Of a stretch of DNA of 64,000 nucleotides, positions 3,213 to 37,025 are shown piece by piece (positions within the stretch are counted from its first letter, which is position 1; each line of letters starts with the position of its first letter). The stretch lies in assembly GCF_003790525.1 (NCBI RefSeq), contig NZ_CP033635.1. The stretch is one strand, 5' to 3'. The position numbers and the translations under genes were made by a program. The stretch comes from Escherichia coli (GTDB lineage: Bacteria > Pseudomonadota > Gammaproteobacteria > Enterobacterales > Enterobacteriaceae). The notes under the pieces are model-generated. The model had not been told where the DNA came from and did no database searches. It saw nothing but the letters and a program-made list of their open reading frames with translations.

Positions 3213-3873
3213 TTATGTTATTGATAAAGCACATGCCATTGCGCAGACCTTCCGCGTTTGTTTGCCAGAGTTCGCCTATTTTACGGTGGATGACTGGCTG
3301 CAGCTGGAACGGGATAACTGGCAAGAAGTGGTCGACTTACAGCTCGGTTGGGATATCACCGATTTTGGTCGTGGTGATTTCAACCAAACGGGACTAACAC
3401 TGCTAACGATGCGCAACGGCGCGCTGGGGGCGGCGGCATATCCAAAACCGTATGCTGAGAAAATGTTGCAGATCCAACAAGATCAGCAAACTCCCTGGCA
3501 TTTTCACACCCACAAAATGGAAGATATCCTCAATCGGGGCGGTGGAGACTTATGCATGCAGTTGGCCTGGGCCAACGAAGCCAATCTCTGTGATGATCAA
3601 CGAGTCATTACCGTGAGTGTTGATGGTCAGCGGCGTACCATGAAACCTGGTGAAACGCTGGTGCTAAAGCCGGGGCAGGGCATTTGCCTGCCGCCGCGTC
3701 TGTATCATCGCTTCTGGGCGGAAAAAGCGTTTGTTCTCGGCTGGGAAATCTCGATGGTAAATGATGACCAACACGATAACTATTTTCTTGAGCCGGGAGG
3801 ACGTTTTCCGGCGATAGAAGAAGATGAACCGGTGAAATGGTTATTGTGCAGTGAGTATGGAATTTTGCGCTAA
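3193..3873 (+). CDS. cupin-type D-lyxose/D-mannose isomerase family protein
   Basis: About 226 aa from ATG 3193 (ORF track frame opens at 3154); similarity by recall to the characterised E. coli O157 D-lyxose isomerase (Z5688) and B. subtilis YdaE; start overlaps the upstream kinase stop by 20 bp. Confidence 0.6.
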   Translation: MKRSQINYVIDKAHAIAQTFRVCLPEFAYFTVDDWLQLERDNWQEVVDLQLGWDITDFGRGDFNQTGLTLLTMRNGALGAAAYPKPYAEKMLQIQQDQQTPWHFHTHKMEDILNRGGGDLCMQLAWANEANLCDDQRVITVSVDGQRRTMKPGETLVLKPGQGICLPPRLYHRFWAEKAFVLGWEISMVNDDQHDNYFLEPGGRFPAIEEDEPVKWLLCSEYGILR

Positions 3874-3882
3874 TAACGGGGA

Positions 3883-3918
3883 ACGCTAGCGCTGATATCC
3901 GCTAGCGTCCTTATTTTT
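3883..3918 (+). terminator. Rho-independent terminator closing the sugar operon
   Basis: Perfect 9-bp inverted repeat ACGCTAGCG / CGCTAGCGT with 8-nt loop followed by CCTTATTTTT. Confidence 0.6.
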
Positions 3919-5626
3919 ACTGCACCGACTCCGTCGACGTAACTTCACCACTGGAAACTACGCCCGCATTCATGGTTTGAGTCACTTGCTGCTTTGCGGC
4001 ATTCACGGCATGCAATTGCCCGCTAACCGTAGGTTTCAGCGGGATATTGGCCTGAATATTGCCGCTGGCGGTAAGCTGAATATTGCCGTCGCCAGTCAAC
4101 GGTAATTCAGGCCATCCCCACTGTTGCAAAATATTCACCGGCACACCGCGTCCATTCAGGCTGATATGGGTCTGACGTTGTGGCGTTTGTGAAACACTGG
4201 CGGTGGCTTCCAGAATGCCTTTTTCAGTAAATGCACTCAGTTCGCTGATATTCACCGTGCTGCTGTTGGCGGTCAGCGCCAGCGATGGGCGACGAACATC
4301 AACACGATTGAATGTCGCGGCGGCGGCATTCAGATTCGCCGAACCACTCCAGACGCCCCATTTATGATCGGTAACCAGCGTCAGGTTGGCACCGTAACCA
4401 TCGAGCGCGGTGAGCTGCCACGGGAAGTCAGGGTCGATATCAATGATCAGATTGCGGCTGGCGCTAAATCTCTTCAGTTGCAGGCTGTTTAACCAACCGG
4501 GTGTCGTTTCCATCCACAACTGTTGCCAGTTTTTTGGCAAGGTATATTCCAGTCCGGCAATTGCCGCATCATCGAGGATCAACATTTTCCCGTCACGCAA
4601 CCAGTTCCCTGACGTTCTGACCATGCCCCCTTCCCAGCGGCTGGTGAACTGGCGCAGTGCTACGCCCTGCGGGGAAAATTCCGCGTTTATAATCGGATCA
4701 AATAAATGCAGCGAGCCATAAATAAACTCGCTGGCGTTCATCGACAGTTTACCTTCCTGTGTCTGCCAGTCATCTTTACTGAAGGTCATGTTGCGCAAGC
4801 TGAGATCGAGGTCGGTCACCGCCCAGTCCGGACCTTGCAAACGAGCGTCGATGACTTCCAGGCGACCAATCTGCAACGACGGGACAGAGCGTAATGGCGC
4901 AAAGAAGTCGGTTAGCGATTTTTCGCTTTGTAGACGGATATCCGCCATGCGCAGGTTTTCCACTTGCCAGCTGCCGTCAGCGTTACGCTGCGCGTTTCCG
5001 GTTAATGTCCCGCGGGCGATGTCGGCACCCAGGTTAGTCAGCGTAACGCGATCGTTATCAATACTGCCTTCAATCAGTACATTGGTGGCAGGAACATCAT
5101 TGAGCGAAAGCGATCCGGCACTAAACTGAATCTGCGCCTTCGTACCCAGCACTTTACCGGCTTCTGGTGACCAAGGAACCACGCCGCCATTTACCCGCTG
5201 CGCGCTCAGTTTCCATTCGCTATTCGGGCTATTAAACGCCATATCACGTAGTTGCAGACGATCGGCTTTGAACGGTAGCGGCGCGGTCTGGTCGGTGAGA
5301 TTCAGCGTCCCGTTTTCCAGCAGGATGGTATCGACATGGCGTGGTTCGGTCAGTTGCCGACTGCTTAGCGCAATGTCGACACTTTTTGCCACCAGGGTCG
5401 CGGGCTGGCCATCACGGCCAAACGTGACGTTCTCCAGCACGATATGAGATGGCGCGGAAAAACGGTGATCCATCGCCCCGAAGGCCAGATGATAGTCGCT
5501 ATTCTCGGAAACCCATGCGCTGATATGTTCTGCTCCCCAGCGAGTTTGCAGCAGAAAATAGAGGCCAGCGATCACCACTAACAGAGCGATGAGAATGTAG
5601 AGAAGCAGCTTCCCAATAAATTTCAT
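3917..5626 (-). CDS. yicH: AsmA-family outer membrane biogenesis protein YicH
   Basis: 569 aa from MKFIGKLLLYILIALLVV; N-terminal TM anchor; position next to xanP as in K-12. Confidence 0.8.
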   Translation of the reverse strand: MKFIGKLLLYILIALLVVIAGLYFLLQTRWGAEHISAWVSENSDYHLAFGAMDHRFSAPSHIVLENVTFGRDGQPATLVAKSVDIALSSRQLTEPRHVDTILLENGTLNLTDQTAPLPFKADRLQLRDMAFNSPNSEWKLSAQRVNGGVVPWSPEAGKVLGTKAQIQFSAGSLSLNDVPATNVLIEGSIDNDRVTLTNLGADIARGTLTGNAQRNADGSWQVENLRMADIRLQSEKSLTDFFAPLRSVPSLQIGRLEVIDARLQGPDWAVTDLDLSLRNMTFSKDDWQTQEGKLSMNASEFIYGSLHLFDPIINAEFSPQGVALRQFTSRWEGGMVRTSGNWLRDGKMLILDDAAIAGLEYTLPKNWQQLWMETTPGWLNSLQLKRFSASRNLIIDIDPDFPWQLTALDGYGANLTLVTDHKWGVWSGSANLNAAAATFNRVDVRRPSLALTANSSTVNISELSAFTEKGILEATASVSQTPQRQTHISLNGRGVPVNILQQWGWPELPLTGDGNIQLTASGNIQANIPLKPTVSGQLHAVNAAKQQVTQTMNAGVVSSGEVTSTESVQ

Positions 5627-5746: not shown

Positions 5747-7138
5747 TTACTGTTTTTCTGGTGGGAAAATCAGATTCAGCACGATGGCAGTAATACCGCC
5801 CGCGGCGATCCCGGAGGAGAGCAGGTTTTTCAGCCATTCAGGGGCAAACTGCAAAATCAGCGGCTGCTGAGACACGCCCAGACCAACCGCCAGCGACAGC
5901 GCGATAATCAGAATCGCCCGACGGTTCAGCGGCTCACGAGACACAATGCGCACACCGGAGGCAGCGATGGTGCCAAACATTACAAGCGTTGCGCCGCCCA
6001 GAACCGGTTCTGGAATGTGTTGCACAAAACCGCTCACTGCCGGGAACAGACCCAGCACGATCAACATCAGCGCGACGACAAAACCGACATAGCGGCTGGC
6101 AACACCGGTTAACTGGATCACCCCGTTGTTCTGCCCGAAGCAGGAGTTCGGGAAGGTATTAAATACCGCCGAGACAAACGAGTTCAGGCCGTTTGCCAGC
6201 ACGCCGCCTTTCAGGCGTTTCATGTACAGCGGACCGGAAACCGGCTGTTCGGAAACGTCAGAGGTCGCCGTGATATCGCCAATGGTTTCCAGCGAAGTGA
6301 TCATAAAGACCAGCATCAGCGGCAGCAGCAGACTCCATTCAATGCCAAGACCGTAATAGAGCGGCGTTGGCACCATAATCAGTTCTTGCGTCATCGGTTC
6401 GTTGCTTTCTGGCAACATGTCCATAAACCACGCCAGCGCATATCCGGCCGCCATCGCAATCACCAGTGAGGCCACGCGTAAGTAAGGGTTACGTTGACGG
6501 TTAAGCAGGATAATTAAGGCTAAGACCACGCCTGCCAGCAGCAGATTTTTCGGTGCGCCGAAGGTGTTATCGCTCATGGCTGCGTAACCGCCGCCAATGG
6601 AGGTCAGCCCCACCTGAATTAGCGACAGGCCGATAATCATCACCACAACGCCAGAAACCAGCGGCGTAATAATGCGGCGCGCCAGATGCAGAACGCGGGA
6701 GATCACCATCTCGGTACAACTTGCCAGCATCAACGTGCCGAACAAAGCCGCCATCATGGTAGGAACATCAGCACCACCGGTCTTCAGCGCTGTGCCGCCC
6801 ATAATCAGCGGAGCAACAAAGTTGAAGCTGGTGCCCTGAATAGACAACAACCCGGAGCCAACCGGACCCCAGGCCTTAATTTGAATAATCGATGCCACAC
6901 CGGAGGCAAACAGCGACATACTAATAATGTGTTGCGTGTCTTGTGCCGGTAAACCCAGCGCCTGGCAGATTAATAGCGCTGGCGTGATCACCGCAACGAA
7001 CATCGCCAGCAAATGCTGACATGCGGCAAACAGGGTTTGAGGAAGCGGCGGACGATCTTCAAGACGGTAAATCAGTTCGCTGTTTTGAGTCTGCGCAACC
7101 GGTTGCGCATTTTCTGACTCGAGGGTGGAAACAGACAT
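5747..7138 (-). CDS. xanP: xanthine:H+ symporter (NCS2 family)
   Basis: 463 aa from [14 protein letters not shown]; polytopic membrane protein; matches recalled XanP/YicE sequence. Confidence 0.85.
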
Positions 7139-7417
7139 CGAAAACAATCCCGTGGTAGCAAAGCGGGCATTTTAGCTGACCGAAAGAGAAAAGCAAACGT
7201 TTGCTACATCCTCGTTTAAATATTTAAATGAGATAAATGTACTTTTTTATATAACTTTTAGTTGTTTTCTGCTTAAAATCCATGCCATTTTTCTATTTTC
7301 AGCGAAGAATTCGAACCAGGAAAGCATGACTCGATACTCGTCATATTTCGCCTTACTGCAAATGCGCGATGAAGTATGACGAGTATGAAAGAGTGATGCG
7401 GACACAAAGGAGTAACT

Positions 7418-8623
7418 ATGTTTCATCTCGATACTTTAGCAACGCTTGTTGCCGCAACGCTGACGTTGCTGCTCGGGCGCAAGTTGGTCCATTCCGTCTC
7501 CTTTTTGAAGAAATACACCATACCGGAACCTGTTGCGGGTGGTTTATTAGTGGCGCTGGCGCTGCTGATACTGAAAAAAAGCATGGGCTGGGAAGTCAAC
7601 TTTGATATGTCCCTGCGCGATCCGTTGATGCTGGCTTTCTTCGCCACCATTGGCCTGAACGCCAACATTGCCAGTTTGCGTGCCGGTGGGCGTGTGGTTG
7701 GCATCTTCTTGATTGTGGTTGTTGGCCTGTTGGTGATGCAAAATGCCATTGGCATTGGTATGGCTAGCCTGTTAGGGCTTGATCCGCTGATGGGGCTGTT
7801 GGCCGGTTCTATTACGCTTTCCGGCGGTCACGGTACGGGAGCTGCATGGAGTAAATTGTTCATTGAACGTTATGGCTTCACCAATGCGACAGAAGTGGCG
7901 ATGGCCTGTGCAACGTTCGGTTTGGTGCTGGGCGGCTTGATTGGCGGTCCGGTGGCACGCTATCTGGTGAAACACTCCACCACACCGAACGGTATTCCGG
8001 ATGACCAGGAAGTTCCGACCGCGTTCGAAAAGCCGGATGTGGGCCGCATGATCACCTCGCTGGTGTTGATTGAAACTATCGCGCTGATTGCTATCTGCCT
8101 GACGGTGGGGAAAATTGTTGCGCAACTTTTGGCTGGTACTGCTTTTGAACTACCGACCTTCGTCTGTGTACTATTTGTTGGCGTGATTCTGAGCAACGGT
8201 CTGTCAATGATGGGCTTTTACCGCGTCTTTGAGCGAGCGGTATCCGTGCTGGGTAACGTAAGCCTGTCGTTGTTCCTGGCGATGGCGTTGATGGGGCTGA
8301 AACTGTGGGAGCTGGCTTCGCTGGCGCTGCCGATGCTGGCGATTCTGGTGGTACAGACCATCTTCATGGCGTTGTATGCCATCTTCGTTACCTGGCGCAT
8401 GATGGGCAAAAACTACGATGCGGCAGTGCTGGCTGCGGGTCACTGTGGCTTTGGCCTTGGCGCAACGCCAACAGCAATCGCCAACATGCAGGCGATCACT
8501 GAACGCTTTGGCCCGTCGCACATGGCGTTCCTGGTAGTGCCGATGGTCGGTGCGTTCTTTATCGATATCGTCAATGCGCTGGTGATTAAGCTGTATTTGA
8601 TGTTGCCGATTTTTGCCGGTTAA
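7418..8623 (+). CDS. gltS: sodium/glutamate symporter
   Basis: 401 aa polytopic membrane protein matching GltS; synteny xanP-gltS-recG. Confidence 0.85.
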   Translation: MFHLDTLATLVAATLTLLLGRKLVHSVSFLKKYTIPEPVAGGLLVALALLILKKSMGWEVNFDMSLRDPLMLAFFATIGLNANIASLRAGGRVVGIFLIVVVGLLVMQNAIGIGMASLLGLDPLMGLLAGSITLSGGHGTGAAWSKLFIERYGFTNATEVAMACATFGLVLGGLIGGPVARYLVKHSTTPNGIPDDQEVPTAFEKPDVGRMITSLVLIETIALIAICLTVGKIVAQLLAGTAFELPTFVCVLFVGVILSNGLSMMGFYRVFERAVSVLGNVSLSLFLAMALMGLKLWELASLALPMLAILVVQTIFMALYAIFVTWRMMGKNYDAAVLAAGHCGFGLGATPTAIANMQAITERFGPSHMAFLVVPMVGAFFIDIVNALVIKLYLMLPIFAG

Positions 8624-8631
8624 CCGATGAA

Positions 8632-8658
8632 GCGGCGGTATTCTCACCGCCGCCTTTT
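8632..8658. terminator. bidirectional Rho-independent terminator between convergent gltS and recG
   Basis: GCGGCGGT-attctc-ACCGCCGC hairpin followed by TTTTAC. Confidence 0.6.
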
Positions 8659-35702: not shown

Positions 35703-36956
35703 ATGTCGTTTTGTTGGAAAGAAATTAACTCTGGTGTCAAGTCTTTAATTCTCATATTATGTATGTTGTCTTTAATGACTTTGTCTTTGTGGGATGATGT
35801 TGCAACAAAGTTTCTTCATGCAGCTGGAATTATATCTACATTATATTTTCTAGCGACAGCAAAAAAAACAATAACTAATAATCCTACTTTGTTAATTTTT
35901 ATCTCATTATGTCTTTTGGGTATCGTTAATATCATCTGGTATTCACATTATAAAGTTTCAGGCTCGGTTTATACCAATGCATATCGTGGCCCAATGGAAA
36001 CTGGAAAAATTGCCTTGTGTAGTGCTTTTATTTTCTTAGTTCTTTTTGCTAAAGATGAGATGAGAACAAAAATAAAATTTGGGAAACTAATTCTGTTCGC
36101 ATCCCTGGCAACGCAGTTACTTTTTTTTGCGCATGCCATGTGGCAACATTTCTATTTAAACGTAGACCGTGTTGCATTATCAGCTTCCCACGCTACAACA
36201 GCAGGCTACATCATCCTTTTCCCTTCTTTACTGGCATCAATTCTCATTTTAAAATGCGACTTTAGACATAAAACAACATTATATACAATTAACTTCATGC
36301 TTAGCTTATGTGCTGTCATAGTAACTGAAACGCGTGCAGCCATATTAGTGTTTCCATTCTTTGCGTTAATATTAATCGTAATGGATAGTTATATTAATAA
36401 GCGAATTAATTATAAGTTATATTGTTTTATTGCGATTGCATTATTAGCAGGTGTGTTTTCTTTTAAAGATACATTGCTTATGAGAATGAATGACTTAAAT
36501 AACGATTTAGTTAATTATTCGCATGATAACACCAGAACTTCAGTCGGTGCCCGTCTGGCAATGTATGAAGTTGGTTTAAAAACATATTCTCCAATAGGAC
36601 AATCACTGGAAAAACGCGCGGAAAAAATACATGAACTAGAAGAGAAAGAGCCTAGATTAAGTGGCGCTTTACCCTTTGTAGATTCTCATTTGCATAACGA
36701 TCTCATAGATACGTTATCAACGCGTGGTATTCCTGGAGTAGTATTAACAATTTTAGCCTTTTCAGCAATATTCATATATGCCTTAAGAACTGCTAAAGAA
36801 CCTTATATTTTAATCTTGCTTTTTTCACTACTGGTAGTAGGCCTAAGTGATGTAATACTCTTTTCTAAACCGGTTCCGACTGCTGTGTTTGTCACCATAA
36901 TATTGCTTTGTGCTTATTTTAAAGCACAATCGGACCAATGTTTATTAGATAAGTAA
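35703..36956 (+). CDS. waaL: O-antigen ligase
   Basis: 417 aa polytopic membrane protein with a large periplasmic loop; last gene of the waaQ operon. Confidence 0.75.
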   Translation: MSFCWKEINSGVKSLILILCMLSLMTLSLWDDVATKFLHAAGIISTLYFLATAKKTITNNPTLLIFISLCLLGIVNIIWYSHYKVSGSVYTNAYRGPMETGKIALCSAFIFLVLFAKDEMRTKIKFGKLILFASLATQLLFFAHAMWQHFYLNVDRVALSASHATTAGYIILFPSLLASILILKCDFRHKTTLYTINFMLSLCAVIVTETRAAILVFPFFALILIVMDSYINKRINYKLYCFIAIALLAGVFSFKDTLLMRMNDLNNDLVNYSHDNTRTSVGARLAMYEVGLKTYSPIGQSLEKRAEKIHELEEKEPRLSGALPFVDSHLHNDLIDTLSTRGIPGVVLTILAFSAIFIYALRTAKEPYILILLFSLLVVGLSDVILFSKPVPTAVFVTIILLCAYFKAQSDQCLLDK

Positions 36957-36970
36957 TGAATATGTGAAAT

Positions 36971-36994
36971 AAAATCAGCAAGGAAGCTGATTTT
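36971..36994. terminator. bidirectional terminator between convergent waaL and waaC
   Basis: AAAATCAGC-aaggaa-GCTGATTTT perfect hairpin with A/T flanks. Confidence 0.6.
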
Positions 36995-37025
36995 ATTTCA
37001 AAATTATCTATTAAAGAGTTGTAAT

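Follow-up and report, generated by a model that had tools for sequence, protein, structure and literature searches.

The xanP-gltS Locus and Its Inverted Repeat

The window analysed here is a stretch of 64,000 nucleotides from Escherichia coli SMS-3-5. Its gene order around gltS is yicH (minus strand), xanP (minus strand, start at 7138), a 279-bp spacer, gltS (plus strand, 7418-8623) and recG (minus strand). The product of gltS is a sodium/glutamate symporter that forms one of the E. coli glutamate uptake systems, and its regulation is poorly described. The spacer runs from 7139 to 7417 and is slightly longer than the 270 bp given in the initial annotation, since xanP is annotated to start at 7138. 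The features of the gltS leader that are used in this report are listed below, all of them on the plus strand.

7243-7286, plus strand: block conserved across genera, CTTTTTTATATAACTTTT...TTTTCTGCTTAAAATCCATGCC, the putative gltS promoter with a start near 7285 (conservation only)
7317-7323, plus strand: CAGGAAA, a conserved single-stranded flank directly 5' of the hairpin (cross-genus comparison)
7324-7399, plus strand: the whole predicted hairpin, 76 nt with 25 pairs (RNAfold)
7324-7327/7396-7399, plus strand: predicted basal helix, GCAU/AUGC (RNAfold)
7329-7332/7391-7394, plus strand: predicted middle helix, ACUC/GAGU (RNAfold)
7334-7350/7370-7386, plus strand: predicted inner helix, 17 contiguous pairs in the window allele (RNAfold)
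7334-7345, plus strand: ATACTCGTCATA, left arm of the 12-nt perfect repeat and 5' strand of the inner helix (repeat search)
7351-7369, plus strand: predicted apical loop, 19 nt, hypervariable between alleles and species (fold and allele comparison)
7375-7386, plus strand: right arm, TATGACGAGTAT, the 3' strand of the inner helix (repeat search)
7408-7412, plus strand: gltS Shine-Dalgarno sequence AGGAG, 5 nt before the ATG at 7418 (invariant in alignments)
7418-8623, plus strand: gltS coding sequence, sodium/glutamate symporter, the gene downstream of the leader (annotation)
7421-7437, plus strand: gltS codons 2-7, TTTCATCTCGATACTTT, able to pair with 7372-7390 in the right-arm region apart from two small bulges (local alignment)

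The two arms of the repeat are exact reverse complements with 29 nt between them (7346-7374), and the perfect 12-bp pair claimed by the initial annotation was found again at 7334-7345 and 7375-7386. A repeat finder lengthens the arms to 16 nt (7334-7349/7371-7386) with a single mismatch, which is a U.G wobble in RNA (7346/7374). The pair had also been called unlikely by chance, and the shuffles bear this out: a perfect 12-nt inverted repeat with a spacer of 3-60 nt arises in only 0.12% of dinucleotide-preserving shuffles of the xanP-gltS spacer (n = 20,000). Over the full 64 kb, 2 distinct loci with 12-nt perfect repeats are observed against a mean of 0.3 in whole-window shuffles. The 12-nt repeat is real and non-random for the xanP-gltS spacer. 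RefSeq carries no annotation over the element, and the literature searched contained no published description of a gltS leader hairpin.

Several other features of the window were recorded alongside the repeat. A near-perfect PurR box, AAGCAAACGTTTGCTA, lies upstream of xanP at 7191-7206. It corresponds to the K-12 PurR site at xanP, TGGCAAACGTTTGCTT, from which the window strain differs by one base at 7205 (PMC3159470). A perfect palindrome, TGCGCAACC/GGTTGCGCA, followed by TTTTCT (7092-7109) was flagged as terminator-like; it is located inside the xanP coding region near the 5' end, on the strand opposite to xanP. The spacer between gltS and recG measures 33 bp in the window (8624-8656) and 168 bp in K-12, where it includes a REP-like insertion (GCCGGATGCGA...) missing in the window strain. 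Further away, a perfect 15-nt inverted repeat with a 6-nt loop, TGAAATAAAATCAGC/GCTGATTTTATTTCA, occupies 36965-37000 between convergent open reading frames that end at 36956 and 37026, and it looks like a bidirectional intrinsic terminator.

Predicted Fold of the gltS Leader

Folding of the gltS leader RNA predicts a stem-loop at 7324-7399 with the repeat at its core, so the 12-nt repeat is the centre of a larger predicted hairpin of 76 nt, which corresponds to K-12 positions 3,828,684-3,828,759 on the minus strand. The 80-nt segment that contains it folds at -33.3 kcal/mol with a z-score of -5.55 (RNAfold), and none of 200 shuffles folds equally well. The base of the predicted hairpin is 8 nt from the Shine-Dalgarno sequence, and AGGAG is essentially unpaired in the predicted fold.

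Putative Transcription of the Leader

A -10-like TAAAAT (7274-7279) is found inside the conserved block at 7243-7286, upstream of the repeat. The block is also present in Salmonella and Citrobacter, and other genera have TAAAAT, TACAAT or TACACT at the equivalent place. It is the only promoter-like block conserved across genera. The repeat would fall within the 5' UTR because the block ends just after the predicted start at about 7285 (K-12 minus strand, about 3,828,797) and because no plausible promoter is seen between the repeat and the ATG. We therefore infer that the repeat belongs to the transcribed gltS leader, and this is the weakest link of the argument. A scan for sigma-70 consensus promoters returned nothing in the xanP-gltS spacer or in the Kluyvera and Pseudocitrobacter leaders, and the literature search found no experimental gltS transcription start. 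Published maps of 3' ends list no end in the gltS leader. Genomic SELEX has placed peaks of the sigma-32 and sigma-28 RNA polymerase holoenzymes in the gltS/yicE spacer (PMC5493296). The peaks are at K-12 U00096.2 positions 3826772 and 3826672 (window ~7336 and ~7436), a resolution too coarse for comparison with the hairpin.

Conservation Within the Genus Escherichia

A scan with one genome per species provided 80 gltS loci. The arms are present and the same fold is predicted in E. albertii, E. whittamii and three other Escherichia lineages, whose alleles fold at -30 to -38 kcal/mol (z -4.2 to -8.1). Together, nine Escherichia alleles have a common predicted architecture at -28 to -38 kcal/mol, with z-scores from -4.2 to -8.1. 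The right arm of E. albertii is identical to that of E. coli, and in E. whittamii an A>G change at 7385 turns one pair into U.G. The apical parts are very different between Escherichia species; E. albertii keeps the perfect core and adds an apical helix of its own. The fold is conserved among Escherichia while the unpaired parts diverge, which is the pattern expected of a 5' UTR stem-loop.

In the Escherichia alignment, 94.7% of the stem cells are paired, and the basal and middle helices are paired at 100%. Six pairs vary on one side with a standard pair kept, and all of these changes produce G.U or U.G on the gltS-sense strand. Four stem positions are mismatched in some Escherichia alleles. 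Within the same alignment there are no compensatory changes on both sides of a pair; at so low a divergence covariation is uninformative, as are the shuffle controls. The gltS-sense strand is more stable than the antisense strand in 9 of the 11 alleles, by up to 11 kcal/mol, because of the G.U pairs. Such a sense-strand bias is expected from selection on the gltS RNA, and neither a symmetric DNA site nor a cruciform would predict it.

Two Alleles Within E. coli

A sensitive blastn search finds the element exactly once, on the chromosome, in 5423 of 5426 complete E. coli genomes. The plasmid collection has five matches at 80-90% identity, four of them in megabase-sized records that are likely chromosomes and one in a 40.6-kb record. 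The element comes in two E. coli haplotypes, a window type and a K-12 type, that differ from each other at 12 of 83 positions. The window-type sequence of about 80-83 nt is identical in 1153 of the 5423 genomes (~21%), which include ST131, Nissle and O4:H5 strains, and near-identical in 72 more. The K-12-type sequence is identical in 3429 genomes and near-identical in 769 (~77% of E. coli genomes).

The K-12-type left arm, ATACcCGTCATA, matches the window arm at 11 of 12 positions, with T>C at 7338. In the K-12 left-arm region, ATACcCGTCATAgTTCAT, the inner helix has C.A and G.G mismatches and two additional pairs. The predicted K-12-type hairpin retains the same overall architecture at -28 kcal/mol (z -5.2); for the full K-12 leader, z is only -0.82. 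When conservation of the arms is followed within the species, the right arm is invariant in 12 of 12 E. coli genomes, while the left arm has the T>C change at 7338 in about 77%. The perfect 12/12 repeat is thus a minority state, and the predicted hairpin itself is universal in E. coli.

Differences between K-12 and the window are unevenly spread over the spacer. Between 7291 and 7362, 21 of 72 nt differ (~29%), as against 2-3 per 100 nt in the flanking genes, and there are no differences at all between 7363 and 7402. Inside the hyper-divergent segment lies a conserved island (7329-7345) in which 1 of 17 nt differs. The 19-nt apical loop holds 9 of the 29 spacer differences. Eight variant sites sampled within E. 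coli fall in the loop (four), in a bulge (one), in stem pairs that are preserved or created (two) and in a pair that is broken (one).

The hot spot at 7291-7362 has few intermediates between the window and K-12 types. The K-12-type allele also occurs in Escherichia sp. MOD1-EC7003, and the window allele resembles those of E. albertii and E. whittamii. The distribution suggests an old dimorphism or a short imported tract. One further variant was seen in E. coli BH212 (locus 3312-4642), where the hairpin and the ATG are separated by an inserted IS10-like element that is annotated as ISVsa5 family. The insertion corresponds to window positions 7403-7411, and the 9 bp duplicated at the target, TACAAAGGA, overlap the Shine-Dalgarno sequence; gltS is annotated as frameshifted in this strain.

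Leaders of Other Genera

The initial annotation proposed checking both arms for conservation across Enterobacteriaceae, and would have taken a lack of it in other E. coli or close relatives as a refutation. That outcome is seen by half: within E. coli the left arm varies and the right arm does not, and the whole element is absent outside Escherichia. The arms are missing from Citrobacter, Salmonella, Enterobacter, Kluyvera, Trabulsiella, Buttiauxella, Cedecea and others, and the leaders of these genera are about 50 nt shorter. As judged from these comparisons, the hairpin is conserved genus-wide and is specific to Escherichia.

A motif, CAGGA(A/T)A, is common to the leaders of Escherichia, Salmonella, Citrobacter, Enterobacter, Kluyvera, Trabulsiella and others. 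In most non-Escherichia Enterobacteriaceae, the slot between this motif and the Shine-Dalgarno sequence holds a GC-rich hairpin of 6-8 bp and about 21-27 nt. In the majority of the 60-odd other enterobacterial leaders, its 3' end is a few nt short of the Shine-Dalgarno sequence. Its arms are GCGUGUGU/ACACGCGC in Enterobacter, GCGUAUGA/UCAUGCGU in Kluyvera, GUGCGC/GCGCAC in Salmonella and UGCGCAC/GUGCGCA in Dryocola. This small hairpin, whose loop is often AUGGA or AUGAA, sits about 10-45 nt ahead of gltS and appears to be previously undescribed.

The small helix is 92% paired in a MAFFT alignment of 22 sequences, where two pairs change on both sides (8 cells), a modest signal, with that cell count reached by 22 of 500 shuffles. 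Individually the small hairpins are weak (mean z -0.9). When 62 non-Escherichia leaders were aligned with MAFFT, RNAalifold returned no consensus structure; helices that lie out of register probably account for this. A covariance model of the small hairpin detected Enterobacter, Kluyvera, Trabulsiella and Pseudocitrobacter, and did not detect Escherichia, Salmonella or Citrobacter. Since the model misses the Escherichia hairpin, homology at the nucleotide level is unproven. The two hairpins share the slot and have a similar distance from their 3' end to the Shine-Dalgarno sequence, but one has 6-8 bp in about 21-27 nt and the other 25 bp in 76 nt, and the arm sequences differ. The Escherichia hairpin reads as an enlarged occupant of an older leader-hairpin slot, an equivalence that is positional.

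RNA Hairpin or DNA Operator

The inverted repeat had been offered two readings, a stem-loop in the gltS 5' UTR and a regulator site with looping. The present evidence favours the stem-loop, because all Escherichia alleles retain the predicted fold around a divergent loop, because the sense strand is more stable in 9 of 11 alleles, because a smaller hairpin sits at the same position in other Enterobacteriaceae, and because the sole conserved promoter-like block is upstream of the repeat. The looping regulator site is neither favoured nor refuted.

In its DNA form, the repeat would supply inverted half-sites, 41 bp from centre to centre, to a dimeric or tetrameric repressor that works by roadblock or looping. 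The site could be the operator of the classical gltR/gltS(o) system, reportedly described by Marcus and Halpern and said never to have been cloned. Classical genetics proposed a gltS operator and repressor that, to our knowledge, have never been identified at the sequence level. Both arms are conserved in sequence across Escherichia, and the spacing would be near four helical turns, as such an operator would have it. The spacer also binds regulators in vivo, with a PtrR/YneJ ChIP-exo peak at gltS/xanP (PMC9068703), and RNA polymerase SELEX peaks are reported there. However, the published description places the PtrR site upstream of the promoter (PMC9068703), and the published 15-bp PtrR/YneJ motif has no match at up to 3 mismatches in the spacer. 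Neither transcription factor motifs nor binding data fall on the arms, and elsewhere in the 64-kb window the arm motif occurs only as chance-level near-matches. The conservation extends over the entire 3' half of the hairpin (7363-7402), beyond a 12-bp half-site, and at 7338 the symmetry is lost in the majority allele. The stem changes are compatible with wobble pairing on just one of the strands, and this asymmetry between sense and antisense argues for RNA. Finally, related genera with the same gene and the same promoter block lack the arms. We regard a DNA operator at the repeat as improbable, and the element is most likely a conventional, uncharacterised mRNA leader hairpin rather than a regulator-binding site.

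Resemblance to the gltS Start Region

The reverse complement of 7372-7390 resembles gltS codons 2-7 (TTTCAT-CTCG--ATACTT) over 16 nt with two indels. The alignment has a score of 22 (p ~0.004, 3000 shuffles), which is reached by 0.2% of genomic windows. The duplex between the right arm and the start region is predicted at -22 kcal/mol and is in the top 3.7% of genomic windows. The left arm (7330-7338) and gltS codons 4-6 (7427-7435) share a 9-nt direct repeat, CTCGATACT. At 7373-7390, within the right arm and directly beyond it, AGTATGAcg is followed by AGTATGAaa as a tandem 9-nt repeat. The similarity to the start region may be a trace of how the hairpin originated, or it may provide an alternative pairing.

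As a trace of origin, it would fit a neutral relic. A duplication, inversion or template switch could have placed a copy of the 5' end of gltS in the gene's leader in the Escherichia stem lineage. The copy would be harmless, and the complementarity of its arms would come from short divergence or from templated (quasipalindrome) correction and not from selection. The resemblance of the right-arm reverse complement to codons 2-7, the copy of CTCGATACT in the left arm and the 9-nt tandem repeat in the right-arm region all agree with such a history. So do the absence of the element from all other genera, with their leaders about 50 nt shorter, the lack of compensatory double changes within Escherichia and the two stem mismatches that the commonest E. 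coli allele tolerates. However, the arms are conserved while the loop and the 5' leader diverge by about 29%, and E. albertii has a perfect core beside a wholly different apical part with an extra helix. The stem changes are also biased to G.U on the sense strand, a bias that templated correction does not predict. We consider a neutral relic unlikely, though it is the alternative to which we give the most weight.

As an alternative pairing, the similarity would make the leader a three-part translational switch. The right arm would pair either with the left arm, in which case gltS is translated, or with codons 2-7, in which case translation is blocked. Anything that opens or cleaves the hairpin could be the trigger, and the candidates are translation of an upstream open reading frame (in the window allele), a nuclease, an sRNA and a protein. 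In favour of the switch, the right-arm region can pair with codons 2-7 along 16 nt if two bulges are allowed, and when the left arm is blocked, the predicted fold pairs 7370-7390 with 7420-7437. In the window allele, an ATG at 7326 that follows AGGAAAG opens a 17-codon frame spanning the left arm. The arrangement recalls the ermC and cat attenuators, which likewise have three segments (here left arm, right arm and initiation region) with mutually exclusive pairings and a short upstream open reading frame over segment 1. Unlike in those systems, the upstream frame of gltS is not conserved and has no known stalling signal, and the alternative pairing is weak. The K-12 type has ATA for ATG and an early TAG, the frame of Escherichia sp. 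E1V33 stops early, and that of E. albertii is shifted. The hairpin state is predicted to be about 17 kcal/mol more stable and would form first during transcription, and a duplex energy within the top 3.7% of genomic windows is not exceptional enough to help. A switch is therefore a very improbable account of the leader. The same slight credence is all that we give to its fuller form, a genus-specific switch for which the gltS start region was copied once directly and once in inverted form, so that the left arm would be a decoy that occupies the antisense right arm, and release of the right arm would shut off GltS synthesis. If it were true, the two E. coli haplotypes would differ in the control of glutamate uptake.

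Class of the Element and Its Proposed Role

Several known classes of element were compared with the leader hairpin and set aside. A scan of 6900-7700 on both strands against Rfam gave, up to E=10, a sole and spurious match to an lncRNA at 12.8 bits (gathering score 40). An intrinsic terminator or attenuator was rejected because no terminator-like site is found at the repeat and no U tract follows it; the sequence after 7399 is GGACACAAAGGAG. A leader-peptide attenuator based on the 17-codon frame at 7326 was rejected because neither its start codon nor its frame is conserved. REP/BIME elements are also imperfect palindromes in E. coli intergenic regions, but the gltS element has one copy per genome in 5423 genomes, which excludes a REP/BIME or MITE-like repeat, and it lies in a 5' leader and not at a 3' end. 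GGA motifs are present at 7319-7321, 7400-7402 and 7409-7411. A CsrA-regulated leader was nevertheless rejected, as the integrated CsrA data set contains no CsrA binding or effect on gltS (No/No/No/No, not significant; PMC5694010).

The closest likeness is to a well-known group of mRNA leaders. In E. coli, structured 5' UTR hairpins control mRNA decay or translation, among them the leaders of rnc, pnp and adhE that RNase III processes and hairpins that obstruct RNase E scanning. Like those hairpins, the predicted gltS hairpin belongs to the leader of one gene and is long and imperfect, with about 25 bp of duplex interrupted by small internal loops. It is near the ribosome-binding site but not over it, and it is single-copy and gene-specific. 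It differs from them in being genus-specific and dimorphic within E. coli, and it is known from its sequence and predicted fold.

We propose with moderate confidence that the element is a cis-acting structure in the gltS 5' UTR that affects mRNA stability or translation. The RNA of 7324-7399 would fold in vivo as predicted, with the inverted repeat as its double-stranded core. Such a stable fold, directly 5' of a ribosome-binding site that is left unpaired, would then set the lifetime of the mRNA and the efficiency of its translation. The hairpin may be an obstacle to 5'-end-dependent attack by RNase E. It may also insulate the ribosome-binding site, alone or alongside its role as an obstacle to decay. 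Moreover, a duplex of about 25 bp is a candidate substrate for RNase III: with 25 predicted pairs, 17 of them contiguous in the window allele, it is within the size range of about two helical turns, or at least 20 bp, of mostly continuous duplex. The literature searched contained no link between gltS and RNase III.

Implications for Glutamate Uptake

The feature is of an ordinary kind, a structured 5' UTR as far as the predicted fold goes, and its function is putative. As a stable and conserved leader hairpin, it is a concrete candidate for post-transcriptional control of glutamate uptake in E. coli. The element exists in two sharply different haplotypes within the species, and these could explain strain differences in gltS expression.
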